NCBI GenBank assembly: GCA_964561935.1
Contig: CAZLQX010000003.1
Coordinates: 66,848 to 130,847, forward strand
Length of the DNA stretch: 64,000 nt
Direction: 5' to 3'
Origin: an uncultured Holophagales bacterium
GTDB taxonomy: Bacteria; Acidobacteriota; Thermoanaerobaculia; UBA5066
A program made the position numbers and the translations under genes. Under the pieces are notes generated by a model. The model ran no database searches. It worked only from the letters and a program-made list of their open reading frames with translations, and was not told the origin of the DNA. Shown piece after piece: positions 44,174 through 64,000 of this stretch. How positions within the stretch are numbered: the stretch's first letter is position 1; the number at the start of each line of letters is the position of its first letter.

Positions 44174-44251
44174 GCGCGGCGATTCTAGTGGGAAGGGGCC
44201 GCCGGTCCCCCCGCGCGCCCGGCGGTACGATGCCCGCACCACGAGGGAACG

Positions 44252-49528: not shown

Positions 49529-50854
49529 CTATGCCGAGAGCCGCGGGTTCAGGGCGATCGCCTTGTTGAGCGCCTCGACCGCCGCCTCGAACTTCTTGAG
49601 CCCCTCGTAGGTCGTCTTCATCGCGTACCACGCCTCGGCGTAGTCGCTCTTGAGGGCGACGGCCTTCTTCAGGTGCCCGAGCGCCTCGTCGAAGGCGAGC
49701 TCCCGGTTCGCGGCGAGGCCGAGCCCGTAGTGCGCTTCCGCGCAGGAGGCGTCGCCGTCGAGCGCCGCCCGGAATGCCTCGGCGGCCTCGGGGAGCTTCC
49801 CTTCCTCCAGGAGCGCCATCCCGTGCGCGGCGTGGACGGGGGCGCTCTTCGGGTCGATCTCGACGGCCCTCTCGAACGTCTTCTGGGCGTCGCGGAACTT
49901 CTTCATCCGCCCGTAGGCGAGGATCGCGCACGCGGGGAGGAGCGGGTCCTTCGGGAACTTGCGCGAGGCCGCCTGGGTGGTCTCGACCGTTCCCTGGAAG
50001 TCGCCCGACTCGAGGAGCGCCCGGGCCGTCTTCAGGTGGAGCTCCGGGTCGTCCTTGTGCTGCTCGAGCGCCGTCCGGAGCGGCTTCACCGCCGAGGCGA
50101 AGTCCTTCGCTTCGTAGAGGGCAAGGCCGAGCTTCCGGTGGACGGGAGAGGTGTCGGGCGCCGTCTTCGCCGAGATCTTGTAGTTCTCGAGGGCGGTCTT
50201 CAGCTTCCCGCCGAGCTTCATGAGGTCGCCGAGGTTCTCGAAGAGGAGAGGGTCCGTCGAGGTGCGCGCCGCCTTCCTCAGGCGGAGCCGGGCCCGCTCC
50301 GCGTCGCCGCGCGAGTAGTCGACGAGGGCGAGCATGTGAAGGAGAGGCGCGTCCTCCACACCTCCCTGCTCGGCCCACGACTCGACGTCCTTCAGGATCT
50401 TCCGCGCCTCCTCGGTGAGGGTCTTCGGGTGGTCCCCGGCGAGCTCCTCGAGCCGCTCGGGGAAGCCGTCGGCGGCGAGGCGCTGGCGGAGCGTCTCGAA
50501 GGCCTCCCGGGCCTTCCGGCCGAAGAAGAAGCGCTGGGTCGTCTGCTCCCGTTTCGCCCTGTCGGCGAGGGAGTCCCTCTCGGCCGTGGCCGCCGCGAGC
50601 TGCTCCTCGGCAGCGGCGAGGCGGGCCTCGAGGTCCGCGGACCTCTCGGCGAGGGCGGTCCGTTCCGCAGAGACGGTCTCCAGCTCGCGCGCGATCCGCG
50701 CCCTTTCGGTCTCGACCTCGGCGAGACCTTCCCGGAGCTTCGAGGCTTCCTCGGTCGAGGAGGTCTTCAGGGCGGAGAGGGAGCGGAAGAGGACGACGGC
50801 GGTGACGACGGCCACGGCCGCGAGGGCGAGGGCGACGAGCAGTCCTGTCGACAA
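49529..50854 (-). CDS. membrane-anchored coiled-coil / TPR-repeat protein
   Basis: TTG start with GGAGG 6 nt upstream. Has an N-terminal TM segment, a coiled coil, then 6 or more TPR units. Confidence 0.65.
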   Translation of the reverse strand: MSTGLLVALALAAVAVVTAVVLFRSLSALKTSSTEEASKLREGLAEVETERARIARELETVSAERTALAERSADLEARLAAAEEQLAAATAERDSLADRAKREQTTQRFFFGRKAREAFETLRQRLAADGFPERLEELAGDHPKTLTEEARKILKDVESWAEQGGVEDAPLLHMLALVDYSRGDAERARLRLRKAARTSTDPLLFENLGDLMKLGGKLKTALENYKISAKTAPDTSPVHRKLGLALYEAKDFASAVKPLRTALEQHKDDPELHLKTARALLESGDFQGTVETTQAASRKFPKDPLLPACAILAYGRMKKFRDAQKTFERAVEIDPKSAPVHAAHGMALLEEGKLPEAAEAFRAALDGDASCAEAHYGLGLAANRELAFDEALGHLKKAVALKSDYAEAWYAMKTTYEGLKKFEAAVEALNKAIALNPRLSA

Positions 50855-51053
50855 GGGGCTCCTCCGCGCGAAAGGAACGGCGCGACTCGGGATGTTACCT
50901 CCGGGAGCGCCCTCTGCGGAACGGAGAAGCCCTGTCCGGGCGGAGGGTCGTGCGGCGCGGTCGAGCGCTCCGCCGCGCCCGGCGGCGAACCGGCGCCAGG
51001 GGGCAGGTGGCGGCCGGAGGCCGCCGTTAGAATGCGGCGTGGCTCGCACCAGG

Positions 51054-53198
51054 ATGTCGCCCCGCTGCCTCGCCGTCGCCCTCGCCGCCCCGCTCGCGCT
51101 CCTCGCCCCGGCCCTGGCCGCCCAGGAGGTCAAGGGACGGGTCGTCGTCCTCGGCTTCGACGGGGCCGACCACCGTCTCGTCTCCCAGTACATCGCGGAG
51201 GGGAAGCTCCCGAACCTCGCGCGGCTCGCCCGGGAGGGAAGCTTCTCGCCCCTCCGGCCGACGATCCCCGCCCAGACGCCGGTCTCCTGGTCGACCTTCT
51301 CGACCGGGCTCTCCCCGGGCCGGACGCAGATCTTCGACTTCCTGAAGAGGGACCCGAAGACCTACCGGCCCGAGTTCGCCGTCGCGACGGAGGGGAAGAG
51401 GCGCTTCCTCCTCGGGAGCGGGAACCGGGCCGGCGCCGCGGCCCTCGGGGCGCTCCTCGCGTTCCTCCTCGTCTTCCTCCTCGGCCGCTTCACGGTGAAG
51501 CGGACGAAGCCCGCGGCCCTCGTCGCACTCGTCCTCGCGGCGCCCGCCGGCTTCTTCTCCTACCGCTTCGGCGGCCTCCTCCCCGAGTCGCTCCAGACCG
51601 TCCACAACAACCGGAAGGGGACGCCGTTCTGGGAGGTCGCCGGTAAGAGCGGGATCCGGTCGGTGGTCCTCCATGTCCCGGTCACCTTCCCGGCCGTCGA
51701 CTTCGACGAGGGGCGGCTCCTCTCCGGGCTCGGCGTCCCCGACGTGCGGGGGCGGATCGGCACGCCGAGCTACTACACGTCCGACCCGTTCTTCTCGCCC
51801 CGGAACAAGAACGAGTTCTCCGTGGAGCTCGTCCGCCTCGAGTCGAACGTCGGGACGATCCGGACGGAGGTCTTCGGCCCCTACAACAAGCTCTTCGGCG
51901 AGCCCCCGGTCATCAGGACGCCGATGACGCTGACGGTCCTCCCGGACGGCGGGCGCCTGAGGATCGAGCCGAAGGGGAGCGAGCCGGTGACGCTGAAGCC
52001 GGGCGAGTGGTCCCCCTGGGTCACCTTCACGTTCGAGTTCAACCCGGTCGTCAAGCTCTCCGGCATCGGGCGCTTCCACCTCGCGAAGCTCGCGCCGGAG
52101 ATCGAGCTCTACCTCTCGCCGATCCACTTCAACCCGGCGAAGCTCCCGCCGGGCGTCAAGATCACGGCCCCCGGCGGCCTCGCGAAGGACCTCGCGAAGC
52201 GCTTCGGCCTCTACAAGACGATGGGCTGGTCGATCGACACCTGGTCGATGAGCGAGGAGACGATCGACGAGCCGACGTTCCTCGACGACGTCACCTTCAC
52301 GGTGCAGCAGTACCGGAAGATGATGGACGGGCTCCTCGCCGAGAAGGACGTGAAGCTCTACGTCCAGGTCTACGAGTTCACGGACCGGGTCGGCCACGTC
52401 ATGTGGCGCTTCCTCGACCCGACGCACCCGGCGTACGACGCGGAGAAGGCGGCGATGTTCGGTCCCTCCGTGGAGCGGAACTACGTCCAGATGGACGAGA
52501 TCGTCGGCGACGCGCTGAAGGAGCTCGGGCCGGACGACCTCCTCCTCGTCTGCTCCGACCACGGCTTCTCGAGCTGGAGGCGGTCGATCAACTACAACAC
52601 CTGGCTCGTCGAGCACGGCTACCTCGCGCTCAAGGGGGGCGACGAGAAGCAGGCGGACCTCGAGCAGCTCTTCGGCCAGGGGGAGTTCTGGCCGAACGTC
52701 GACTGGTCGCGGACCAAGGCCTACTCGATGGGCCTCGGCGAGATCTACGTGAACCTGAGGGGCCGCGAGTCGCAGGGGATCGTCGAGCCGGGGGCCGAGT
52801 ACGACGCTCTCCGGCAGGAGATCCGGGTGGGGCTGATGGCGATCGTCGACGAGGCGACCGGGCGCCGCCCCGTCGAGCGCGTCTACACCCGCGAGGAGGC
52901 CTACGGCTCGTTCGACCCGAACGTCATCCCGGACATCTTCGTGACGAACAGCGAGGGCTACCGGGTCTCGTGGCAGGCGAGCCTCGGCGTCGTCACGCCG
53001 GAGCTCTACGAGGAGAACGTCCAGGTCTGGTCGGGCGACCACTGCTCGGTCGACCCCGACGTCGTCCCCGGGATCCTCCTCTCGAGCCGGCCGCTCCGGA
53101 AGGAGCCCCGACCGAACATGGCCGACGTCCCCGCGACGATCTACAAGGCGCTCGGCCTGACGCCGCCCGAGCCGCTCGACGGGGAACCGCTCTTCTGA
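51054..53198 (+). CDS. secreted alkaline-phosphatase-superfamily protein (type I phosphodiesterase/nucleotide pyrophosphatase-like) with internal hydrophobic insertion
   Basis: Has a signal peptide. AP-superfamily metal and nucleophile motifs are present: VVLGFDGADH, PTIPAQTPVSWSTFSTG, LLVCSDHGF. Confidence 0.75.
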   Translation: MSPRCLAVALAAPLALLAPALAAQEVKGRVVVLGFDGADHRLVSQYIAEGKLPNLARLAREGSFSPLRPTIPAQTPVSWSTFSTGLSPGRTQIFDFLKRDPKTYRPEFAVATEGKRRFLLGSGNRAGAAALGALLAFLLVFLLGRFTVKRTKPAALVALVLAAPAGFFSYRFGGLLPESLQTVHNNRKGTPFWEVAGKSGIRSVVLHVPVTFPAVDFDEGRLLSGLGVPDVRGRIGTPSYYTSDPFFSPRNKNEFSVELVRLESNVGTIRTEVFGPYNKLFGEPPVIRTPMTLTVLPDGGRLRIEPKGSEPVTLKPGEWSPWVTFTFEFNPVVKLSGIGRFHLAKLAPEIELYLSPIHFNPAKLPPGVKITAPGGLAKDLAKRFGLYKTMGWSIDTWSMSEETIDEPTFLDDVTFTVQQYRKMMDGLLAEKDVKLYVQVYEFTDRVGHVMWRFLDPTHPAYDAEKAAMFGPSVERNYVQMDEIVGDALKELGPDDLLLVCSDHGFSSWRRSINYNTWLVEHGYLALKGGDEKQADLEQLFGQGEFWPNVDWSRTKAYSMGLGEIYVNLRGRESQGIVEPGAEYDALRQEIRVGLMAIVDEATGRRPVERVYTREEAYGSFDPNVIPDIFVTNSEGYRVSWQASLGVVTPELYEENVQVWSGDHCSVDPDVVPGILLSSRPLRKEPRPNMADVPATIYKALGLTPPEPLDGEPLF

Positions 53199-53284
53199 GG
53201 CTCCGCGCGGCCCTCCTCCTGGCGCTCCTCGCGGCCCCGCCGGCCGGGGCGCAGGAGGAGGGGGCGCGCCCGCCGGCCCGGGAG

Positions 53285-54364
53285 ATGGGCGGGGCGGAGC
53301 GGCGGCGGGAGCTCGAGCTCCTCCGGCAGCGTCTCGCCCTCCTGAAATCCCGCTACGAGACGACCCGCCGGAAGGCGGTCGACACCCGCGAGCAGCTCGA
53401 GGCGGCCGAGGCGAACCTCGAGCTGAGGACCGCCGAGAGGCGGCTCCTCGAGCTCCGGGCCGCCGAAGCCGAGCGCGCCGCAGTGCAGGCGCAGTCCGAC
53501 CGGGACGTGGCCGTTCGCAAGAGCGGCGCGCTCCGGGCCGACGTCGCCGTGCGGCTCCAGGCCCTCTACCGGATGGGGCGGCTCGGATACCTCCAGACGC
53601 TCGCCTCTGCCGACTCGGGAGAGTCCTTCCTTCGCGGGCTCCAGCTCCTCTCATTCCTCGCGGCCCGGGACGTGCGCCTCCTGCGCGCCTACGAGGGCTC
53701 CCTCGCCGAGCTCGCCGCGAAGGAGAGGAGCCTCGCGGCCCTCCGCGCCGCGATCGCGAACGTCGCCGCCGAGGCGCGAGCGGCGGAGCGGGAGCTGGCG
53801 CGGGCGCGGGCCGAGAAGGCGGCGCTCCTCGCGCGGCTCGAGCGGACCGCGGAGTCGCAGCGGACGCGGGTCGCGGCGCTCGAGGAGAAGACCGACCGCC
53901 TCGCGGCCCTCCTCGAGCTCCTCGAGACGCGGGGGAGGTCGCTCCCGGCCGGCTCGGCCTCCATCCGGCGGTACAAGGGGGCCCTCGACTGGCCCGCCGA
54001 GGGGGAGGTCGTCGTCCCCTTCGGCCGGATCGCGAACCCCCGCTTCCCGAAGACGTTCCTGAGGTCGAGCGGCTGGACGATCGACGTCCCCACGGGCACT
54101 CCGGTGCGGGCGGTCTTCGCGGGCGACGTCGTCTACGCCCAGTGGCTGAAGGGCTACGGGAACCTCGTCGTCCTCGACCACGGGGACGGGGTCTTCACCC
54201 TCTACGGGCACCTGATGACGGGGACCGCGGCCCGGGGGACGCGGGTCTCGCTCGGCGAGGTCGTGGGCAGGGTCGCCGATCCGCCCGAGGAGGAGGTCGC
54301 CGGCGTCTACTTCGAGATCCGCGAGAGCCGGGCCTCCGTCGACCCCCGCTCGTGGCTCAGGTAG
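53285..54364 (+). CDS. EnvC-like murein hydrolase activator (coiled coil plus degenerate M23/LytM domain)
   Basis: Coordinates start at the first in-frame ATG. A signal-peptide-like segment from 53195 has no ATG/GTG/TTG start. The LytM region VVLDHGDGVFTLYGHL is present and the HxH motif is replaced (VYFEIRE). Confidence 0.7.
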   Translation: MGGAERRRELELLRQRLALLKSRYETTRRKAVDTREQLEAAEANLELRTAERRLLELRAAEAERAAVQAQSDRDVAVRKSGALRADVAVRLQALYRMGRLGYLQTLASADSGESFLRGLQLLSFLAARDVRLLRAYEGSLAELAAKERSLAALRAAIANVAAEARAAERELARARAEKAALLARLERTAESQRTRVAALEEKTDRLAALLELLETRGRSLPAGSASIRRYKGALDWPAEGEVVVPFGRIANPRFPKTFLRSSGWTIDVPTGTPVRAVFAGDVVYAQWLKGYGNLVVLDHGDGVFTLYGHLMTGTAARGTRVSLGEVVGRVADPPEEEVAGVYFEIRESRASVDPRSWLR

Positions 54365-54437
54365 GTGGCGTCCGGGGCCTTCGCCCGGCGGGCCGGGCCC
54401 GTGCAACCGGCCCGGCGCGATCCCGTATCATCGTCGC

Positions 54438-55757
54438 GTGACGAAGTCCCGGCTCGCGTCGTTCCTCGGCTCGCTCGCCCTCCTCGGCACCCTCTTCCTC
54501 GTCCTCCCCGGGCTCGGCGCGGACGAGAAGAAGGAGAAGGGGGGGAAGGACGGCCTCTACCGACCGCTCGGCCTCTTCGCGGAGGTCCTCTCGCTCGTCA
54601 AGGGGAACTACGTCGAGCCGGTCGAGGTGACGCCCCTGCTCCAGGGCGCGTTCGCCGGGATGACCGAGGCGATGGACCCGTTCTCGGAGTACGTTCCGCC
54701 CGGCAGGATGGCCGCCTTCGAGGCGGCGAGGGCGGCCCGCGGGAAGGCCGACCACGTCGAGTCGGGCCTCGTCCTCGCCCGTCGCGGCGGGTACCCCGTC
54801 GTCGTGACGGCCGTCCCAGGGAGCCCCGCCGCCGTGGCAGGGATCCGGACGGACGACGTCCTCGAGAAGGTCGGGGGCGTCTCGGCGCGGGGCCTCGCCC
54901 TCTGGGAAGTGGAGGCGGCCCTCTCGGGCAAGCCGGGCGGCCGCGCGAGCCTCCTCGTCGTGAGGGATGCGAAGCCGCGGCGGCAGACCGTCGAGATCGT
55001 GCGCGCCTCGTGGACGCCCGCCCTTCCGTCGGCCGAGCGCGTCTCCGGGGAGCTCGTCGTCCGGATCCCGGCTTTCGTGCCCGGGACGACGGACGCGCTC
55101 GCGAAGCTCCTCGCCCCTCTCGACCGGACGAAGCCGCTCGTCCTCGACCTTCGCGGCAACGCCCGGGGCGAGTGGGACGAGGCGGCGCTCGCCGTCTCGC
55201 TCCTCGGCCCGGCCGGCCCGGTCGGAGACCTGAAGGGGCGGAAGGTCGCGACGAGGAGCTGGAAGGCCGAGCCGGGTCGACGCGTCCACGAGGGCGGGCT
55301 CGTCCTCCTCGTCGACAGCGGCACGGGAGGTCCTGCCGAGCTCTTCGTCGCGGCGCTCCGCGAGGCCGCGGCGAAGGAAGCGGGCTTCGACGTCGCCGCG
55401 GCGGTTCGGCGCGAGGAGAGGAAGGCCGAGAGCGGTCTCGACGACGATCCGGGCGCGGCTCCGGCCCCGGCCGTCGAGAAGGGGAAGCTCCGGGTCCGCG
55501 TCGTGGGCGAGCCGACGTTCGGGATGGGGATCACGCAGGAGGTCGTCCGCCTCGCGAGCGGCGGCGCGCTCCGCATCACCGTCGGCAAGGTGAGGACCGC
55601 AGCCGGCCGGACACTCTCGCCGCGCGGCGTCGCTCCCGACGACCGCGTCTTCCACGTCCTTCCCGAGGAGGGGGAGGAGGGGAAGCTCCCGGATCCCTTC
55701 CTCGAGCGCGCCCTGAAGGTCGTCACCGAGCTTCCCGCCGCTCCGCGCGCCTCGTGA
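54438..55757 (+). CDS. S41 family C-terminal processing peptidase homolog (CtpA-like) with PDZ; catalytic Ser/Lys motifs substituted
   Basis: GTG start, signal peptide and PDZ domain. The S41 core reads LVDSGTGGPAELF (canonical GSASAAE) and GEPTFGMGITQ (canonical TFGKG). Confidence 0.75.
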   Translation: MTKSRLASFLGSLALLGTLFLVLPGLGADEKKEKGGKDGLYRPLGLFAEVLSLVKGNYVEPVEVTPLLQGAFAGMTEAMDPFSEYVPPGRMAAFEAARAARGKADHVESGLVLARRGGYPVVVTAVPGSPAAVAGIRTDDVLEKVGGVSARGLALWEVEAALSGKPGGRASLLVVRDAKPRRQTVEIVRASWTPALPSAERVSGELVVRIPAFVPGTTDALAKLLAPLDRTKPLVLDLRGNARGEWDEAALAVSLLGPAGPVGDLKGRKVATRSWKAEPGRRVHEGGLVLLVDSGTGGPAELFVAALREAAAKEAGFDVAAAVRREERKAESGLDDDPGAAPAPAVEKGKLRVRVVGEPTFGMGITQEVVRLASGGALRITVGKVRTAAGRTLSPRGVAPDDRVFHVLPEEGEEGKLPDPFLERALKVVTELPAAPRAS

Positions 55758-56680
55758 CGGCGGCCCGCCGGCGCGGCGGCTGCGGTCGGTCGCTCGGCCT
55801 CCTCGTCGGCCTCGCGGTCCTCCTCGCGCTCGCAGCGGGCGCCGTCCGGCTCCTGCGCTCCCGCGCCGAGGCGCCTGTCGCCGGTCCGACCGGGGAGCGC
55901 CCGGGGGCGACGCCGTCGCCGACGCCCTCGCCGACGCCCCGGCCGACGCCTCGCCCGCGGACCGTGGCCGTCCCCGCCGATTTCGAGCCGGCGGCTGGCG
56001 AGGGAAGGGGGGCCGTCGCCGTCGTCATCGACGACGTCGGGAACGCCGACGGCTCGATCGAGCGACTCGCACGCCTCGAGGGACCGCTCGCGATCGCGGT
56101 CCTCCCCGGGGCGCCGCGGGCCCGCGAGGCGGCCGCCCTCGCGCGGCGGAAGGGCTGGGACCTCCTCGTCCACCTCCCGATGGCCGGCGTGCGAGGCCCC
56201 GCGGAGCCGGGGACGATCTCCTCGGACGACGACGACGCGGCGATCGCGCGGCGGGTCGAGGAGGCGATCGCGTCCGTCCCCGGTGCCGTCGGCCTCAACA
56301 ACCACCAGGGTTCCCTCGCGACGGCCGACGAGCGTGTCATGCGCGTCGTCCTGACCGTCGTCCGCGACCGTGGCCTCTTCTTCCTCGATTCCAAGACCTC
56401 CGCCGCGAGCGTCGCCGAGGCCGAGGCACGCGCCCTCGGCCTCGCGACGATCCCGCGGGACGTCTTCCTCGACGACGCCCGGGCCGAGGCGGCGGCGGGA
56501 GGGGCGCCCGAGGCGCGCGCGGCGGCGTGGACGCGCGCTCTCGCGATCGCGGCCTCGGGCGGGCACGCCGTCGTCATCGGTCACCCGAACGCGGCGACGG
56601 TCGACTTCCTCGGGAAGGCGCTTCCCGAGCTCGGGCGGAAGGGCGTCCTCCGGGCGCGCATCTCCGAGCTCGTCGACTGA
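55754..56680 (+). CDS. divergent polysaccharide deacetylase family protein (YibQ-like)
   Basis: GTG start overlaps the ctpA-like stop (GTGA). Has an N-terminal TM segment and PT-rich linker, then the YibQ core (AVVIDDVGN…LNNHQGS…VIGHP). Confidence 0.75.
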   Translation: MTAARRRGGCGRSLGLLVGLAVLLALAAGAVRLLRSRAEAPVAGPTGERPGATPSPTPSPTPRPTPRPRTVAVPADFEPAAGEGRGAVAVVIDDVGNADGSIERLARLEGPLAIAVLPGAPRAREAAALARRKGWDLLVHLPMAGVRGPAEPGTISSDDDDAAIARRVEEAIASVPGAVGLNNHQGSLATADERVMRVVLTVVRDRGLFFLDSKTSAASVAEAEARALGLATIPRDVFLDDARAEAAAGGAPEARAAAWTRALAIAASGGHAVVIGHPNAATVDFLGKALPELGRKGVLRARISELVD

Positions 56681-56791
56681 CGGGCGCTCCCGCGCGGGAC
56701 CCGGGAGGGGCGCGCGACCTCGCCCCGCCGGGCGTCGCGGGCTATCATCACGGCGCTCCAGCGCACGGAAGAGACGACGGGGGTTGCCGCG

Positions 56792-57211
56792 ATGGAACTT
56801 TTCGACGAGATCGAGCTGACGGACGACGAGGCGCGCGCGATCGGGCGGGCGATGCTCGCCGTGGCGCGGGCCGACGGCGCGGCCGAGCCCCGCGAGGTCG
56901 CGCTCATCGAGCAGCTCGCGCCGGTCGACCCGGCGGCTCCGGCCCCGCAGGCGGCGGAGCTCGCGGCGGCGATCCCGCGTGCGGACGCCCGGGAGCTCCT
57001 CCTCCGTTCCGCCCTCCTCGTCGCCCTCGTGGACGGCGACTACAGCGAGGCGGAGAAGGCGCTCGTCGCCGACTGGGCCGGGGCGTTCGGCGTGGCGCCC
57101 GCGCGGCTCGAGGAGCTCGCGAGCTCGGTCAAGGCGTTCCTGATGTCCCCGCTCGTCCCGCTCTCGAACAGCCCCGCGGTCGCCGAGGTCTCGAGGAAGC
57201 TGAGGGTCTGA
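56792..57211 (+). CDS. TerB-like / DjlA N-domain-like protein
   Basis: 139 aa acidic helical protein with the TerB-like repeats (ELTDDEARAIGRAMLAVARADGAAEPREVALIEQL … DGDYSEAEKALVADWAGAFGV). Confidence 0.55.
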   Translation: MELFDEIELTDDEARAIGRAMLAVARADGAAEPREVALIEQLAPVDPAAPAPQAAELAAAIPRADARELLLRSALLVALVDGDYSEAEKALVADWAGAFGVAPARLEELASSVKAFLMSPLVPLSNSPAVAEVSRKLRV

Positions 57212-57310
57212 ACCGGCGCCCCGGCGCGCGCCGGGCGGGCCGGGGGCGCCTCCCGCGCACGGGCTCCGGCCGCCTTTCGTCCGCGACCGCCGCGCGTAGA
57301 CTCCCGGGCC

Positions 57311-59824
57311 ATGCGTGGCCGCCCGTTCGCCCCGGCGCTCTTCCTCGCCCTGATCGCCCCGGCCGCCGTCGCGGCCCCGCCGTCGCCGTCGGCCTTCCTG
57401 CGGAAGCCGGTCGGCGCGGACCGGACCCTCGCCGACTGGCGCGAGGTCGTCTCCTACTTCCGGGCGCTCGACGCCGCCTCCGACCGTGTCGAGGTCTCGA
57501 CGATCGGGCGGTCGACGCGCGGGGAGGAGATGGTCCTCGCCGCGATCTCGAGCCCGGAGAACCTCGCGGGGAAGGAGCGGATCCGCGCGATCGCGCGGAG
57601 GCTCGCGGACCCGCGCGGCCTTTCCGACGCCGACGCGCGGGCCCTCGTCGCCGAGGGGAAGGTCGTCCTCCTCGTGACCTGCGGCATCCACGCGAGCGAG
57701 ATCGGCGCCTCGCAGATGGCGATGGAGTGGGCGCACGCCCTCGCGACGGCCCAGGACGCGGAGACGAAGCGCCGCCTGTCGGAGGTCGTCCTCCTCCTCG
57801 TCCCGTCGCTGAACCCCGACGGCCACGCGATGGAGGTCGACTGGTACCGGAAGAACCTCGGCACGCGGTGGGAGGGGAGCCGGATGCCCTGGCTCTACCA
57901 CCACTACGTCGGCCACGACAACAACCGCGACTTCACCCAGCTCACGCAGGCCGAGACGAAGGCGATCAGCCGCGTCCTCTACCACGACTGGTTCCCGCAG
58001 GTCTTCCTCGACGAGCACCAGATGGGGACGAACGGGCCGCGCATGTTCGTGCCGCCGTACGCCGACCCGCTCGACCCCGACATCGACCCGCTCGTCATCC
58101 GCGAGGTGAACCTCATCGGGTCGCTCATGTCGATGCGGCTCGAGCAGGCGGGAAAGGCGGGCGTCATCTCGGCGTGGGCCTTCGACGCCTCCTGGCCCGG
58201 CGGGTCGAAGAACACGGCCTGGTGGAAGAACGTGACGGGAGTCCTGACCGAGGTCGCCTCGGTCAGGGTCGCGACGCCCGTCGAGGTCCCCCCGTCCGAG
58301 CTTCGCGGCGGCGGGAAGGGGCTCGTCACCTACGGGACGCAGTCGAACTTCCCGAACCCCTGGCGGGGCGGGACGTGGCGGCTGCGCGACGTCATGGACT
58401 ACGAACGGGTCGCCTCGGACGCGATCCTCGAGTTCTGCGCGACGCACCGGCCGGACGTCCTCTCGAACATGCTCGCGAAGGCCCGCGCCTCGATCGGAGC
58501 CGCGGCCCCGGGCGAGACGTACCGGATCCCGAGGGCGCAGCGCGACCCGGCGGCCGCCCGCGCGCTCGCGGCGCTCCTCGTCGAACACGGCGTCGAGGTG
58601 TTGGCCGACGCGAACGGGGACGCCTGGGTCCCCCTCGCGCAGCCGTACGGGCGCTTCGTCCGCGAGATGCTCGAGCCGCAGCGCTTCCCCGAGGTGAAGC
58701 TCGTGCCGGGGAAGGAGATCGTCGCCCCGTACGACGTCACGGCCTGGAGCCTCCCGCTCTCGATGGGCGTGACCGTCGGGAAGGGGACGCTCCCCGAAGG
58801 GCTGGCCCCCTGGAAGGCGCCGGCGACGCCGGCCCTTCCCGCCGCGGAGACGTATGCGCTGGGCCCTGGGAGCCCGGAACGCTGGAAGGTCGTCGCCGCG
58901 GCCCGGAAGGGGGGCGAGGTCTCGCTCCTCCCGGCGGCCGCGGGAAGCCTCCCGGCCGGGACGCTCCTCCTCGACGCGGGGGCGGCGAAGGCCGGCGCGG
59001 CCGTCGCGGGCGAGCTCGGTCTCGCCCTCGAGCCCCTCGCGGCGGCCCCCGCCGGCGCAGCGAGGCTGCGCACCCCGCGCGTCGGCCTCTACAAGCCGTG
59101 GCTCGCGTCGATGGACGAGGGGTGGACGCGGTTCCTCCTCGAGCGGTACGGCTTCGCGCCGGTGACCCTCGACAACGCGGGCCTCCGAGCCGGGAAGCTC
59201 GGCACGCGCTTCGACGTGATCGTCCTTCCCGACGTCGAGAAGGAGGTCCTCGCCGGCGGGAAGCCGAAGCGCGACGAAGGCGAGATGCGCTACTTCCCCG
59301 AGCCGCGGCCCGAATACGCGGGCGGGCTCGGGAAGGAAGGGTCCGCGGCGCTGAAGGAGTTCGTCGAGGGAGGCGGGACGCTCGTCGCCCTCGCCTCCTC
59401 CTCCGAGTACCTGATCGACGAGCTCGCCCTCCCCGTGAGGAACGCCCTCGCGCACGTCCCCTCCTCGGAGTTCCTCTGCCCGGGCGGCCTCGTGAGGATC
59501 GAGCTCGGCCCGGCGCACCCGGTCACGTTCGGCCTTCCCGAGTCGCTCCCGGCGTTCCTCGACGGGCCGCTCGCCTTCCAGACCGCGATCCCGGGGGCGG
59601 AGATGACGCGGACCGTCCTCGCCTCGTACCCGGAGCAGGCTCGCGACGTCCTCGTCTCGGGCTGGATCCGCGGCGAGGAACGGCTCGCGCGGAACGCCGC
59701 GGCTGTCGCCCTGACGCTCGGGACGGGAAAGGTCGTCCTCCTCGGCTTCCGGGCCCAGCACCGCGCGCAGACGCTCGCGACGTTCCCGTTCCTCTTCAAC
59801 GCCCTCGTCTGGTCCGTGCTCTGA
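57311..59824 (+). CDS. secreted M14-family zinc carboxypeptidase-like protein with large C-terminal extension
   Basis: Has a signal peptide. M14 Zn-binding motifs are present: CGIHASEIG (HxxE), SLNPDGH, …HQMG. Confidence 0.8.
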   Translation: MRGRPFAPALFLALIAPAAVAAPPSPSAFLRKPVGADRTLADWREVVSYFRALDAASDRVEVSTIGRSTRGEEMVLAAISSPENLAGKERIRAIARRLADPRGLSDADARALVAEGKVVLLVTCGIHASEIGASQMAMEWAHALATAQDAETKRRLSEVVLLLVPSLNPDGHAMEVDWYRKNLGTRWEGSRMPWLYHHYVGHDNNRDFTQLTQAETKAISRVLYHDWFPQVFLDEHQMGTNGPRMFVPPYADPLDPDIDPLVIREVNLIGSLMSMRLEQAGKAGVISAWAFDASWPGGSKNTAWWKNVTGVLTEVASVRVATPVEVPPSELRGGGKGLVTYGTQSNFPNPWRGGTWRLRDVMDYERVASDAILEFCATHRPDVLSNMLAKARASIGAAAPGETYRIPRAQRDPAAARALAALLVEHGVEVLADANGDAWVPLAQPYGRFVREMLEPQRFPEVKLVPGKEIVAPYDVTAWSLPLSMGVTVGKGTLPEGLAPWKAPATPALPAAETYALGPGSPERWKVVAAARKGGEVSLLPAAAGSLPAGTLLLDAGAAKAGAAVAGELGLALEPLAAAPAGAARLRTPRVGLYKPWLASMDEGWTRFLLERYGFAPVTLDNAGLRAGKLGTRFDVIVLPDVEKEVLAGGKPKRDEGEMRYFPEPRPEYAGGLGKEGSAALKEFVEGGGTLVALASSSEYLIDELALPVRNALAHVPSSEFLCPGGLVRIELGPAHPVTFGLPESLPAFLDGPLAFQTAIPGAEMTRTVLASYPEQARDVLVSGWIRGEERLARNAAAVALTLGTGKVVLLGFRAQHRAQTLATFPFLFNALVWSVL

Positions 59825-59989
59825 CGCGCGCCCCCCCCCGGGCGGGATCGGGCGCCGCGGGCGCCCGTTCCCGCCGGGGACCCGGGGCTCGCGACCTCGG
59901 CCGAGGGGACAGTGCCGTGTCTTGCGTCACGGTCTCGGCGCCGCGTCGGACCTATCTTCCCGGGATACCAGTCTTACCGGGAGGTCGAG

Positions 59990-60763
59990 ATGAGCTATCC
60001 GCTTCTCCGAGAGAGAGATCTGCTCCCCGCCGTCGGAGTGCTCCAGAAGCTGCTGCAGAGAACGGGCGCGTCGATCGACGCCGACGGCGACTTCGGTCCG
60101 AGGACGAAGGCGGCCGTCGTCGCGTTCCAGCGGCCGCGTGGGCTGGTCCCCGATGGCGCCGTCGGGGAGAACACGTGGCCGCGGCTCGCCGCCGGGGCCC
60201 CGGGTCTTCGGGTCGTCGACTGCGTCGACGTCTTCGACCCGTCGCTCGCGAGGCTCGAGGAGCGGGACATCCGGCGGGCCGGCGGGAACCCGATCGTCAT
60301 CGGCGGGATGAGCGGCGGCGTCGAGCAGGCCGTCAGCGACATCCTTCGGACGGCGGCCCCGGGCTCCGTCTTCCTTCTGAGGTTCCACGGCCACGGCGCG
60401 CCCGGAGTGGCCGGGATCTCCGACGGCCACGGGGTCGCGGGCGAGCACCACTCGAGCCTCAGCGCCGGGAACCTCGCCGCGCTGCGCCCCGTCATCGCGA
60501 GGCTGCGCCCGATCTTCGGCCCCTGGGGCTGCGTCCAGTTCATGCACTGCTCGACGGGACGCGGCCCGAGCGGCCGCGCGATGCTCCGCAACATCGCGAA
60601 CGAGCTCGGCGTGCCCGCGTCGGCCGGCGTCGTCGACCAGCTCGGCGGAGGGCTGACGACGTTCCGGTTCGAGGGCCCGACGTTCACGGCCGTTCCGGGA
60701 GGCGGGGCGCTTCGCGACTGGAGCCGCGGCCTCCCGGACTTCGTGCAGATGTCCGTGGCCTAG
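59990..60763 (+). CDS. peptidoglycan-binding (PG_binding_1) domain protein with uncharacterised C-terminal His/Cys-containing domain
   Basis: GGGAGG lies 5 nt before the ATG. PG_binding_1 signature DGDFGPRTKAAVVAFQRPRGLVPDGAVGENTW. The C-terminal region has …LRFHGHG… and …VQFMHCSTG. The stop codon abuts the IS end. Confidence 0.65.
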   Translation: MSYPLLRERDLLPAVGVLQKLLQRTGASIDADGDFGPRTKAAVVAFQRPRGLVPDGAVGENTWPRLAAGAPGLRVVDCVDVFDPSLARLEERDIRRAGGNPIVIGGMSGGVEQAVSDILRTAAPGSVFLLRFHGHGAPGVAGISDGHGVAGEHHSSLSAGNLAALRPVIARLRPIFGPWGCVQFMHCSTGRGPSGRAMLRNIANELGVPASAGVVDQLGGGLTTFRFEGPTFTAVPGGGALRDWSRGLPDFVQMSVA

Positions 60764-62227
60764 TACTACTGTGTTGCGAAAGTCGGTGGTTTCGTGCGAG
60801 CGGGGGGGCGATCCGTGATGGCTCTCTGGCGGCAGGGACATCGGGGAATCCCCTCCAGAAGTACGAGAGCGATTCGTACGCGCATGGTCTCGATCGACTC
60901 CGGGACGTGTCGCTGCGGACGGATCGGGAGCACCCCTCGGGCGGAAACCTCCGGGTACGGCAGCGACCTGGAACGGGAGTCCGAGGAGCGAAACGCCTGA
61001 GGGGGAAGAAAGGCCCCGTTCCACGGCGAGGAAAGCGTATGCGGCTATGCAGAGCGTCGCGTGATGGTGGAAGCCCCGCCATCCACGGCCTTCGTAGTGG
61101 TCCAGTCCGATCTCGTCCTTCAGTTCCTCGTAGTCGCGCTCGGTGCGCCACCGCAGCTTTGCCGTCCGCACGAGCGTTGCGAGCGGCGTGTTCGGCGGCA
61201 GGGTCGACAGGAAGTACTTCGTGGGCTCCTTCTGGCCCGAGGGCCACTCGATCAGAAGCCATTCCTCGGGGCGGGCCTCGGCTCGCCAGTAGTCGCGAAG
61301 AGCGGGCCGGACGCGGACCGCATGGAAGCGCGACGTGAGCGGGGCTTTCGTGCCCTGCCGCCAGGTCACGGATCGGAAACGCGCGCGCCCGATTCGCTGC
61401 GCGAGCGCCTCGACGGAGATCGGCTGATGGGTCGCGTCTCGAGAGAGAAGCCTGGGGGGGCGTCCCTTGCCGGAAGAGGCAGGGGCAGGCAGAGGGCCCT
61501 CGCCCGGAGGCCAGACAGTCGTCGCAGCCTGGATTCCGACGGCGTATTCGAGGCCGAGCGCGGTGACGTCGTCACGGAAGGGCGTGCTGTCGCCGTATCC
61601 GGCATCGGCCAGGAGAACCCCTTTGGGGACCCCATCCTCGACCGCGGTTCGAAGCTGGGCCGTGGCGATCTCGAGCTTCGTCCGGAAAGGGACTTCGTCA
61701 GGGACACCCGCCTTCATTCGCCGCTCCCGGTCGGCCGCCCAGACCTCCGGCAGATAGAGCTCGTAGGCGATGGGCAGGCTGAGGCGCTCGTTGGCCACGG
61801 AGAGGCTTACGGCGACCTGGCAGTTCTCCTGCTTTCCGAGAACACCGCAGTGCTGACGCGTGACTCCCACCGAATGGCGTCCCTTCTTCGGAATGCCCGT
61901 GTCGTCCACGATCCACGCCTTCACACCGCCGTGCGCCTGGAACACGGGCAGGGCGTAATCCCGGATCGCCGCCAGAAGCCTGCGGTCGCTCCAGGGCGAA
62001 TCCGCCACCAGGTGGTGCATGCGCTGATGGACCGAGCGCACGTCGCCAGGCGCGAGCCGCGCGGCCATCGGCTCCACACTCTTCCGCTCCCCGGGCAGAA
62101 GAAGCCCGGCGCAGTAGAGCCGAAGCGGCTCAGCGCGATCCGAATGCCCGACCGCCCTCATCAAGACCGACGTGCAGTTTTCGAACCGTTCGCTCGGCGA
62201 CGGGGCGAAGCCGGCGCTTGTGGCCAT
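60764..62227 (-). CDS. IS701-family DDE transposase; no in-frame stop inside the element
   Basis: N-terminus MATSAGFAPSPSERFENCTSVLMR…WIVDDTGIPKKG…LLADAGYGD…GWRGFHHHATLCIAAYAFLAVERG. The ORF stays open to 59927 and runs antisense through the PG-binding gene. The 3' end given here is the putative IS boundary. Confidence 0.55.
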
Positions 62228-62309: not shown

Positions 62310-63083
62310 TCAGAACCTCAAGGAGAGACAGCTGAGGCCGCCGTCGAGCTTCCGGAACTCGGACATCCCGAGGGCGACCGTCGGGAGGCCGCGGGAGCGG
62401 AGCGCGGCCTCGAAGCGGGGGAAGCCCTCCGCGAGGAGGACGGTGCCGTTCACGAGGACGGCGTTCGCGGCGTACTCCTCGCCGTCGGGGACGCGGAGGA
62501 GGTCCCATCCGGCGAGCTCGCGGCGGGACGCGAAGGGGGCCGAGACGGCGAGCGTCCGCCCCCCGAGCCAGGCGATCCCGCTCTTGAGGTGCAGGAGGCC
62601 GGGAATCCTGCGGACGTCGACGAGGGTCGCGCCGAGGCCGCGGCTCGCGAGGTGCCCGGCGAGCTGCCGTGCCCCCTCCGCGTTCGTCCGCTCCGATACG
62701 CCGACGAAGACGTGGTCGCCCGCCTCGCAGACGTCGCCGCCGTCGACGGTCCCGGGAGCCTCGATGGCGGCGACGTCGGGGAAGAAGGGCTCGATCGCCG
62801 GCCGGACCGCCTCGACCTCGCCGGCGCGGCTCGGCGCGCCGGGCCGGCAGAGGACGGCGAGGCCGCGCGCGAGGACGGCCGTGTCCTCGACGAACGTCGA
62901 GTCGGGGAAGCGGTCGTCCGGGGGAAGGGCGGTGACGGCGAGCCCGAGCGCCTCGAGCGCGCGGACGTAGGCCCCGTGCTGGTCGCGGGCGAGCGCGAGG
63001 TCGGGAAGGCCGAGGCCGGCGGTCGTGAGACCCTCGGCGAAACGGCCGCACGGCGGCCGGACGATCGCGCGCGCGAAGCTCAC
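62310..63083 (-). CDS. N(G),N(G)-dimethylarginine dimethylaminohydrolase (DDAH) / amidinotransferase-superfamily protein
   Basis: GTG start overlaps the mazG stop (GTGA). Contains VSFARAIVRPP… and a C-terminal catalytic-Cys motif (KLDGGLSCLSLRF). Confidence 0.75.
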   Translation of the reverse strand: MSFARAIVRPPCGRFAEGLTTAGLGLPDLALARDQHGAYVRALEALGLAVTALPPDDRFPDSTFVEDTAVLARGLAVLCRPGAPSRAGEVEAVRPAIEPFFPDVAAIEAPGTVDGGDVCEAGDHVFVGVSERTNAEGARQLAGHLASRGLGATLVDVRRIPGLLHLKSGIAWLGGRTLAVSAPFASRRELAGWDLLRVPDGEEYAANAVLVNGTVLLAEGFPRFEAALRSRGLPTVALGMSEFRKLDGGLSCLSLRF

Positions 63084-63910
63084 GGCGCCTCCTCGCGCTT
63101 CACCGCGTCCCACGTCGCGTCGAGCTCGGAGAGGGACGTGTCGCGCACCTCGCGGCCGGCCGCGCGGACGCGCCGCGCGACCTCCTCGAAGCGCCTCACG
63201 AACTTCCCGTTCGTCGCCTGGAGCGCCGCCTCCGGGTCGACCCCGTGCCGCCTCGCGACGTTCACGACGGTGAAGAGGATGTCGCCGATCTCGTGGGCGA
63301 TCGAGTCCTTCGTCGCCCCCTCCGCGAGGAGCTCGGCCTTGAACTCGGCGACCTCCTCGTCGAGCTTGACGAGGACGTCCGCGTCGCGCTCCCAGTCGAA
63401 GCCGAGGTCGGCCGCACGGGACGTGACGCGGACGGCCTTCAGGAGGGCGGGGAGCGTCCTCGGGAGGCCCTCGAACGGAGAGGGGACCGCCCCGGCATCG
63501 CCGCGGGCGGCGCGCTCCCCCTCCTTGAGCTTCTCCCACTGGACCTTCACGGCCTCGGCGTCCGCGACCTCCTTCTCGCCGAAGACGTGCGGGTGGCGGG
63601 CGACCATCTTCGCGTGGACCCGCTCCGCGAGCGAGGCGAGGTCGAAGGCGCCCGCCTCGCGCCCGAGCTCCGCGAGGAAGACGATCTCGAAGAGGAGGTC
63701 GCCGAGCTCGCCTTCGAGCGCGTCGAGGTCCCGCCGCGCGAGGGCGTCGAGCGCCTCGTGGCACTCCTCGAGGAGGTAGCCCGAGAGGTCGGCGAAGGTC
63801 TGCTTCCGGTCCCAGGGGCACTCGGCCCGGAGGCGGGCCATGAGCCGGACGAGGGCGGCGGCGGCCTCTCCGGCGGCCTCGGGGCGCAGGGAGCTCGGCG
63901 GAATCGTCAC
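63080..63910 (-). CDS. mazG: nucleoside triphosphate pyrophosphohydrolase MazG
   Basis: Has two MazG EExxE repeats (LLEECHEALDA…, LDEEVAEFKAE…) and WEKLK. Confidence 0.85.
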   Translation of the reverse strand: MTIPPSSLRPEAAGEAAAALVRLMARLRAECPWDRKQTFADLSGYLLEECHEALDALARRDLDALEGELGDLLFEIVFLAELGREAGAFDLASLAERVHAKMVARHPHVFGEKEVADAEAVKVQWEKLKEGERAARGDAGAVPSPFEGLPRTLPALLKAVRVTSRAADLGFDWERDADVLVKLDEEVAEFKAELLAEGATKDSIAHEIGDILFTVVNVARRHGVDPEAALQATNGKFVRRFEEVARRVRAAGREVRDTSLSELDATWDAVKREEAP

Positions 63911-64000
63911 GGGAGCCTCCTCGTCGCGGCGCCGGGGAGAAGATCCCCTAGAATGAAGCGCCCGAACGAGGCCTTATGGCAGAAGCAACCAGGACGATCA

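Follow-up and report, generated by a model that had tools for sequence, protein, structure and literature searches.

Why would a group of bacteria maintain, between a gene for an EnvC-like amidase activator and one for an SddA-like glycan deacetylase, a gene for a CtpA-like S41 peptidase homologue in which both residues of the catalytic dyad have been replaced? The question is posed by a 64,000-nucleotide stretch of DNA, referred to here as the window, from an uncultured Holophagales bacterium (contig CAZLQX010000003.1). The original prediction, made from the letters of this stretch alone, was that the gene at 54438 to 55757 encodes a putative pseudo-protease that keeps the PDZ domain and the fold motifs of S41 enzymes and is paired with EnvC. 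The answer that seems probable to us is that its product is an exported pseudo-protease derived from CtpA, a non-catalytic PDZ binding protein that acts with the EnvC- and SddA-like proteins in remodelling of the septal wall. The gene and the parts of its product to which the argument refers are the following.

54438..55757, plus strand: Ser-less, Lys-less CtpA-like S41 homologue of 439 amino acids (aa), with a GTG start and a TGA stop
54438..54521, plus strand: N-terminal hydrophobic segment, residues 1-28, a putative signal peptide or signal anchor (LPGLGA, then DEKK)
54759..55007, plus strand: PDZ domain, about residues 108 to 190, in which G110 and GSPAAxAG are kept (Pfam, alignment and model)
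55314..55340, plus strand: former nucleophile motif DSGTGGPAE, with Gly298 (55329-55331) in place of the catalytic Ser
55365..55490, plus strand: charged, poorly conserved insert of ~40 residues (310-351) between the former catalytic motifs (alignment and model)
55515..55529, plus strand: former general-base motif TFGMG, with Met363 (55524-55526) in place of the catalytic Lys
55743..55754, plus strand: C-terminal tail PRAS, the clade-wide equivalent of which is (K/R)xAA

The start of this open reading frame (ORF) is supported by its homologues, which begin at the same Met-Thr/Ser-Lys position. The Pfam model Peptidase_S41 (PF03572) matches the protein with 75.8 bits against a cutoff of 24, PDZ_6 matches residues 121-176 with 36.1 bits, and there is a weak CtpB_N-like match. 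TIGR00225 ('prc'), the general NCBIfam model for carboxyl-terminal processing proteases (CTPs), gives 117.3 bits and thus falls below its cutoff of 218.6, and the specific NCBIfam models for CtpA/B/C/Z, Prc and MXAN_5808 leave the protein far under every cutoff. Judged by these matches, it is plainly an S41 homologue, though an aberrant one. When all chains in the PDB were searched with phmmer, the top match was CtpA of Pseudomonas aeruginosa (7rpq, E 9.6e-28), aligned with high posterior probability over both catalytic motifs. Modelling with AlphaFold2 on the basis of 48 homologues gave a mean predicted local distance difference test score (pLDDT) of 79.5 and a predicted template modelling score (pTM) of 0.76, the pLDDT of PDZ domain and core being about 90 or higher. 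Foldseek comparison of this model with the PDB returned CtpA of P. aeruginosa and of Helicobacter pylori, CtpB, D1 protease and Prc (E 1e-28 to 1e-21), the template modelling (TM) scores against CtpA and CtpB being 0.6-0.76 at E about 1e-28. The Pfam matches and the model agree that the PDZ domain and the overall S41 fold have been retained, as had been predicted.

The nature of the catalytic loss emerges from the alignment with P. aeruginosa CtpA, in which phmmer pairs LVLLVDSGTGGPAELF of the window protein with LVVLINGGSASAAEIV of 7rpq and so sets SGTGGPAE against GGSASAAE. The nucleophile is the middle Ser of GGSASAAE, which has been changed in the mutant entries 7rqh and 8sxe (GGSAAAAE), and because this Ser aligns with Gly298, the nucleophile column of the window protein holds Gly. 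In the same way, TFGMGITQ is aligned by phmmer to SFGKGSVQ, and since SFGKG falls on TFGMG, the position of the general-base Lys is Met363. The catalytic set given by the H. pylori CtpA entry 9ku3 (S300A/K325A/Q329A) is S300/K325/Q329; its third residue, Gln, is present in the window protein as Q367, yet 66 of 120 homologues have Ala in this column. The original prediction had itself raised the prospect that its motif register was shifted and that Ser and Lys would turn up at the catalytic positions after all. Such a shift is ruled out: phmmer, MAFFT and Foldseek all put Gly298 and Met363 in the catalytic columns, so that both substitutions stand in the sequence and the fold alignments alike.

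There is no indication that a new set of residues has taken over. An alignment of the wide family (62 sequences, mean column identity 28%) contains no newly conserved Ser, His, Asp or Lys, the conserved positions being canonical structural residues, and K384, S294 and D293 are conserved in the window subclade only. We infer that the protein is a pseudo-protease, incapable of peptide hydrolysis of the Ser/Lys type.

The substituted state is fixed among close relatives. The 120 best homologues from a collection of 5.8 billion proteins (56-100% identity), the named ones of which are entered as 'S41 family peptidase [Thermoanaerobaculia bacterium]' or '[Acidobacteriota bacterium]', all have Gly in the nucleophile column and Met in the Lys column. 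The Met-for-Lys replacement, conservation of which in orthologues had been proposed as a check, is therefore invariant in this set, as is the DSGT motif across the window subclade. Pairwise comparison (Nei-Gojobori) of the window gene with 9 orthologues of 77-82% identity gave ratios of nonsynonymous to synonymous substitution (dN/dS) of 0.19-0.29, which are probably overestimates because the G+C content at third codon positions (GC3) is about 0.95, and full-length homologues were found in hundreds of independent assemblies. The window protein thus has two attributes of a pseudoenzyme: its homology to an enzyme family is clear although the essential catalytic residues are missing, and purifying selection keeps its gene intact across lineages. 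In the wide alignment, conservation reaches at least 90% at T296, G298 and G362 and is complete at E301, G357, G375, D237 and G110; within the PDZ domain, G110 is accompanied by P130, A131 and A134, each at least 90% conserved. Because of this pattern, residues around the former active site and in the PDZ loop rank among the most constrained positions of the protein, and Gly298 is itself under selection.

How far back does the loss reach? It is a property of a whole clade, which the original prediction, made from one gene, could not have shown. A full HMMER scan over 1.84 billion cluster representatives (50% identity clusters) placed the window subclade in essentially one cluster, P0034. The next ~100 representatives are 28-42% identical and about 390 aa long, and they lack both the insert and the Ser. 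Among the roughly 142 alignable representatives, 99 have Gly in a G-T-x-G-x-A-E motif and only 28 have Ser and Lys together. The column of the former Lys is occupied by H (24), R (12), Y (11), M (8), L (8), K (6), V (5) and others, W and F included, and outside the window subclade the place of DSGT is taken by DRGT, DDAT or NRGT. A search seeded with an H-type member recovered an H/Y subfamily of 120 proteins. Every one of them has Gly in place of the nucleophile and H, Y or W in place of the general base, and the named ones are all from Thermoanaerobaculia. The insert between the two motifs, to which the original prediction did not refer, is a peculiarity of the window subclade, nearly all members of which have a motif-to-motif spacing of 38-60 residues, as opposed to 12 in CtpA and the sister subfamilies. 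In the AlphaFold2 model it contains a helix (319-331) followed by residues with a pLDDT below 50 (333-345).

On a crude neighbour-joining (NJ) tree of the 50%-identity representatives, with P. aeruginosa CtpA as the root, the Ser-less proteins group in a single clade. Of its 107 representatives, 92 have Gly and only 2 (P0129 and P0249) have Ser and Lys, and the remaining 25 canonical proteins branch outside it. Every named member of the clade belongs to a Thermoanaerobaculia or Acidobacteriota metagenome-assembled genome (MAG), and as far as we have seen the clade is confined to uncultured lineages. One of the two nested exceptions is informative about the origin of the loss: P0129 is nearest to Ser-less members (46% identity to P0124) and its gene lies directly after an M23 gene. 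From this relatedness and this neighbour it follows that the Ser-less state arose within the EnvC-linked lineage of CtpA. Some members of the clade combine Gly with a retained Lys (P0168, P0188, P0205, P0213, P0244, P0261 and the protein of locus L082), and a few, such as P0195, keep Ser with a partner other than Lys. This mosaic of partial losses would fit a relaxation of constraint on the second residue after loss of the first.

The N-terminus points to a location beyond the cytoplasm. Residues S12, L15, V22, L23, P24 and A28 are invariant in the 48 homologues. With its hydrophobic N-terminus the protein would be exported, and by the -3/-1 rule it would be cleaved between LPGLGA and DE.

The position of the gene suggests what such a protein might do. 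It is part of a cluster in which three other genes recur.

51054..53198, plus strand: Phosphodiest-family protein of the alkaline-phosphatase superfamily, exported or membrane (PF01663, E 2.5e-30), first conserved gene of the cluster
53195..54364, plus strand: EnvC-like amidase activator, a coiled coil followed by a C-terminal degenerate LytM/M23 domain (Peptidase_M23, E 8.8e-23), 5' end uncertain
55754..56680, plus strand: YibQ/SddA-like divergent polysaccharide deacetylase (Polysacc_deac_2, PF04748, E 8.6e-61)

The upstream neighbour is of the EnvC type, as originally claimed. Its top NCBIfam match is EnvC, under the cutoff of that model, and its top PDB matches, aligned over residues 53-384, are the EnvC chains of the FtsEX-EnvC complexes 8tzk, 8i6o and 6tpi. 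It reads VYFEIR where EnvC reads LYFEIR, at the place of the HxH zinc motif of active M23 enzymes. The start of its gene is less straightforward: no in-frame ATG, GTG or TTG precedes the conserved signal-like stretch LRLRAALLLALLAAPPAGAQEE, the sole canonical start being ATG 53285 after it, and the EnvC-like genes of three related loci (L006, L009 and L012) present an equivalent problem. The phosphodiesterase-like gene ends in a TGA that shares bases with a CTG at 53195 (CTGA), which suggests a non-canonical start and translational coupling. The GTG start of the S41 gene follows the TAG stop of the EnvC-like gene by 73 nt, and at its other end the TGA stop shares bases with the GTG that begins the YibQ-like gene (GTGA at 55754-55757). 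For the phosphodiesterase-like gene, the start at ATG 51054 was picked from the signal-peptide-like MSPRCLAVALAAP; its product also has an apparent internal hydrophobic hairpin.

This gene order extends well beyond the window. We assembled a set of 85 loci, consisting of the best 80 of 350 GTDB species genomes with a relative (one genome per species) and 5 from exact-protein look-ups. The best 80 genomes are Acidobacteriota MAGs labelled Thermoanaerobaculia or 'Holophagales', except for one labelled Acidithiobacillales that we take to be mis-binned. The S41 proteins encoded at these loci again have Gly wherever the nucleophile column could be aligned (84/84), and Met at the Lys column in 76 of the 84. 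A phosphodiesterase-like gene lies upstream of the M23 gene in 65 loci, its product ending in LDGxPLF in 42 of them and in LW or FW in most others, and a YibQ-like gene lies downstream of the S41 gene in 82. The order of all four genes is complete in 63 loci and that of M23, S41 and YibQ in 76, most of the rest being cut by contig ends; the M23-S41-YibQ order was met again at one further locus, of the H/Y subfamily. Overlaps of start and stop codons are common at the M23/S41 and S41/YibQ junctions of related loci. A scan of 50800-57400 found no promoter-like or terminator-like sites, which is weak evidence in a genome of 74% G+C.

The same arrangement is known with an active protease. In P. 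aeruginosa, envC, ctpA and PA5135 form a three-gene operon, in which PA5135 is orthologous to E. coli yibQ/sddA, so that CtpA occupies the same slot, after a degenerate LytM protein of the EnvC type and before a deacetylase of the YibQ/SddA type (PMC12569750). SddA removes acetyl groups from denuded glycan strands and modulates the activation of amidases; a FLAG-tagged version reaches higher levels in a prc mutant, and the authors infer from this that SddA is digested in vivo by the S41 protease Prc (bioRxiv 10.1101/2025.02.18.638797). As for the predicted pairing of a dead CtpA with EnvC, then, it is the pairing of the genes that stands (76 of 85 loci), and a physical or functional link between the proteins is suggested by the operon structure.

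The CtpA at this operon position in P. aeruginosa degrades wall hydrolases, among them LytM-domain proteins. The Ser-less protein would be co-transcribed, and in part translationally coupled, with the EnvC-like amidase activator and the SddA-like glycan deacetylase. Having kept its PDZ domain, its S41 core and the residues that determine the shape of the old active site, it could use PDZ domain and cleft to bind what its ancestors bound, namely the C-terminal tails, or exposed stretches, of proteins that remodel the cell wall, for which LytM-domain proteins and the SddA-like deacetylase are candidates. Such clients would be held, shielded or positioned stoichiometrically, not degraded, and the splitting of septal peptidoglycan would be tuned in this manner. 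As a second layer, its tail of small residues (AA, or AS in the window) might make the dead protein a ligand or substrate for the PDZ domain of a canonical CTP of ~540 aa. Client holding appears to be the most economical model because the operon-encoded CtpA degrades wall hydrolases and Prc appears to degrade SddA.

The tail deserves closer attention. Small non-polar C-termini are recognised by tail-specific proteases and their PDZ domains, as in the cases of Tsp, the ssrA tag and CtpB. Full-length Ser-less representatives end in Ala-Ala in 65 of 93 cases, typically as (K/R)(K/R/A/E)AA, compared with 3 of 27 among the canonical proteins (Fisher p = 5.5e-8); counted by clade, the AA tail is found in 75 of 107 inside and 1 of 28 outside (p = 5e-11). 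The ends in the H/Y subfamily are AA (87), VA (30) and PA (3), and the S41 proteins of the locus set end in AA (60/83) or AS (19/83), AS being the tail of the window's own subclade. Both nested Ser+Lys members, P0129 and P0249, carry the AA tail, and for this reason it probably predates the catalytic loss.

Conventional enzymes have not disappeared from the class. A search with the N-terminal half of the cluster representative P0125 returned canonical CTPs of ~540 aa, 120 of 120 with the motifs GTASA(S/A)E and (S/T)WGKG and several of them named Thermoanaerobaculia, so the class has retained a conventional CTP, presumably at another place in the genome. By tblastn, there is no second S41 gene in the window. 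P0125 itself (locus L088, 5134-7911) is an ORF of 925 aa in which a canonical CTP (GTASASE, TWGKG) is fused to a Ser-less module, and it is known from one 14.5-kb contig only. The module reads GTLGAAE and TFGYAGR, ends in KRKAA and has no signal peptide of its own; a TPR gene lies divergently upstream. A second candidate for such a fusion, P0388, was rejected, being 93% identical in the N-terminal part and diverging into unrelated sequence at the junction. The fusion is a singleton that may be an assembly chimera, and we treat it as a lead only.

Several of these observations would also suit a different role, in which the Ser-less protein is a regulatory subunit or a pseudo-substrate of an active CTP, either co-assembling with the ~540-aa enzyme or presenting its tail to the PDZ domain of that enzyme, and in this manner gates or competes with the proteolysis of wall hydrolases. 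This is the main rival to the binding protein proposed above, with which it is compatible, and we regard it as unlikely though deserving of serious attention. The AA tail is a hallmark of the clade and of the kind that classically signals to tail-specific proteases, canonical Ser/Lys CTPs are widespread in Thermoanaerobaculia, in the fusion one of them is followed by a Ser-less module without its own signal peptide, and the N-terminal helices, a dimerisation region in CtpA, are conserved in a family whose members CtpA and CtpB form oligomers. That said, the fusion stands on a single contig and the 93% identical P0388 has no dead module; the dead gene adjoins an active CTP gene in none of the 85 loci, where its neighbours are EnvC-like and YibQ-like; and the tail in the window is AS, not AA. 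A combination of the two roles, whereby the dead protein captures wall-remodelling proteins and also shows its conserved Ala-Ala end to the remaining active CTP, its own degradation, and not that of the hydrolases, then timing the splitting of septal peptidoglycan throughout a bacterial class, strikes us as distinctly doubtful.

A further alternative is that the active site has been rewired and the protein is still a hydrolase, with Thr296 or the clade-specific Ser294 and Asp293 as catalytic residues. Bases other than Lys do occur in S41, where the tricorn protease and CPAF have catalytic sets of the Ser/His type, and the invariance of DSGT in the window subclade and the conservation of T296 across the wide family could be taken as signs of such a site. 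However, canonical enzymes likewise have Ser or Thr at the position of T296, where it is not the nucleophile (GSASA or GTASA), and S294 and D293 are not conserved beyond the window subclade. The former Lys column is hypervariable and often hydrophobic, the third catalytic residue is Ala in over half of the close homologues, and nothing new (His, Ser or Asp) is conserved in the wide alignment. Because of this hypervariability and the want of any new conserved residue, a rewired hydrolase is very improbable. The least credible account of all would explain the protein by faulty sequencing, by a shifted register or by an incipient pseudogene with no function of its own. The shortfall against TIGR00225 (117 bits for a cutoff of 218.6) and the low-complexity insert are what might be said for it, but it is excluded by intact full-length frames in hundreds of independent assemblies, by Gly and Met that are invariant among close homologues, by dN/dS well below 1, by conserved synteny and by a confidently predicted fold.

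The proposal of a non-catalytic binding protein must in turn be set against observations that weigh on the other side. A conserved Thr296 stands two positions ahead of the lost Ser, and one subfamily has His in place of the Lys, which might permit unconventional hydrolysis in some members. Membership of an operon is no proof of physical interaction with the EnvC-like protein. A dead protein and an active ~540-aa CTP were seen together only in the singleton fusion ORF P0125. Docking of the tail in the protein's own PDZ domain was not seen in AlphaFold2 monomers of the window protein or of the AAA-tailed P0035 (pLDDT 81.7), in both of which the last three residues have a pLDDT below 50; binding of the tail in trans may still occur. 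Lastly, the neighbours end in WLR (EnvC-like) and in ELVD or ELVP (YibQ-like), neither of which is a classical small non-polar terminus, and a simple tail-to-PDZ link with either neighbour is thus not indicated by their sequences.

Comparison with known systems places the window protein closest to P. aeruginosa CtpA (PA5134; MEROPS S41A). This is its best match in both sequence and fold, and the two share the order of N-terminal helices, PDZ domain and S41 core. They differ in that P. aeruginosa CtpA has an active Ser302 and Lys where the window protein has Gly and Met, identity is only about 25%, and the window protein has the additional 40-residue insert between the motifs and falls under the TIGR00225 cutoff. 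E. coli Prc/Tsp also ties an S41 protein with a PDZ domain to SddA and EnvC in the splitting of the septal wall (bioRxiv 10.1101/2025.02.18.638797). Prc, however, is an active protease of 680 aa encoded away from gpmM-envC-sddA, whereas the window S41 gene lies inside the operon and its product is predicted not to cleave. GpmM belongs to the alkaline-phosphatase superfamily, and just as gpmM precedes envC in E. coli, the window cluster is headed by a gene of that superfamily.

Loss of catalysis with retention of binding has precedents in and outside the S41 family. The modules of IRBP derive from a branch of S41 that lacks the PDZ domain. Vertebrate IRBP/RBP3 and its amphioxus homologues resemble the window protein in being derived from S41, in having lost the Ser while conserving neighbouring residues and in having a binding role (PMC10120077). 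Unlike it, they are eukaryotic, arose after a horizontal transfer and consist of tandem PDZ-less modules that bind retinoids and lipids, the window protein being bacterial with a single module and a PDZ domain. Nor do proteins of the IRBP type have any relation to cell-wall operons. EnvC, NlpD, ActS and DipM follow the same logic in the same pathway, as catalytically dead peptidase folds that bind and activate wall enzymes, and one protein of this kind is encoded directly upstream of the S41 gene; in fold and ancestry they are M23 metallopeptidases and not S41 serine peptidases. The subtilase-like CspA and CspC of Clostridioides difficile are likewise conserved homologues of serine proteases with mutated catalytic residues that serve as regulators or receptors, but they differ from the window protein in protease family, cell compartment and process (PMC7200643, PMC6636752). 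We found no description of a catalytically dead clade of bacterial CtpA/S41 proteins in the openly searchable full-text literature, a scope that leaves out most subscription journals.

What would such a clade mean for the family as a whole? Proteases of the CtpA/Prc type are currently viewed as degraders that set the levels of cell-wall hydrolases. A large and strongly conserved clade in which fold, PDZ domain, operon and the residues lining the cleft persist without either catalytic residue implies that the CtpA family has a binding function on which selection can act separately, and that the placement of ctpA between envC and sddA, long unexplained, may reflect a physical or regulatory partnership and not proteolysis alone. 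Databases label the proteins of the Ser-less clade as peptidases, and hundreds of Thermoanaerobaculia entries called 'carboxyl-terminal processing protease' or 'S41 family peptidase' probably are no such thing. The clade could also serve as a natural 'substrate-trap' CtpA, usable to find the clients of operon-encoded CtpAs.

The window has a G+C content of 70-79%, dipping to 0.696 at 60001-62000, and its remainder contributes a number of minor observations. The TPR lipoproteins LbcA and NlpI are adaptors of CtpA and Prc. A divergent TPR protein of 554 aa is encoded just upstream of the cluster on the minus strand (49529-51193); no lipobox was seen in it, and it is not syntenic in other loci. 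Downstream of the YibQ-like gene come a TerB-like protein (56792-57211) and an 837-aa protein resembling M14 carboxypeptidases (57311-59824), in which the HxxE zinc motif is apparently intact (GIHASE). This pair occurs only in the closest subclade of the window (loci L006-L019), a minus-strand MazG gene following directly after the YibQ-like gene in other Thermoanaerobaculia. In the window, MazG is found at 63080-63973 on the minus strand, and between it and the M14-like gene lie genes for a PG_binding_1 protein (59912-60763) and a DDE_5 transposase (about 60800-62227), also on the minus strand. Because neither of these two genes occurs in any of the related loci, the region looks like a local insertion. 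At 44189-46825, a large protein combines DUF7379 with a C-terminal CHAT (caspase-like) domain.

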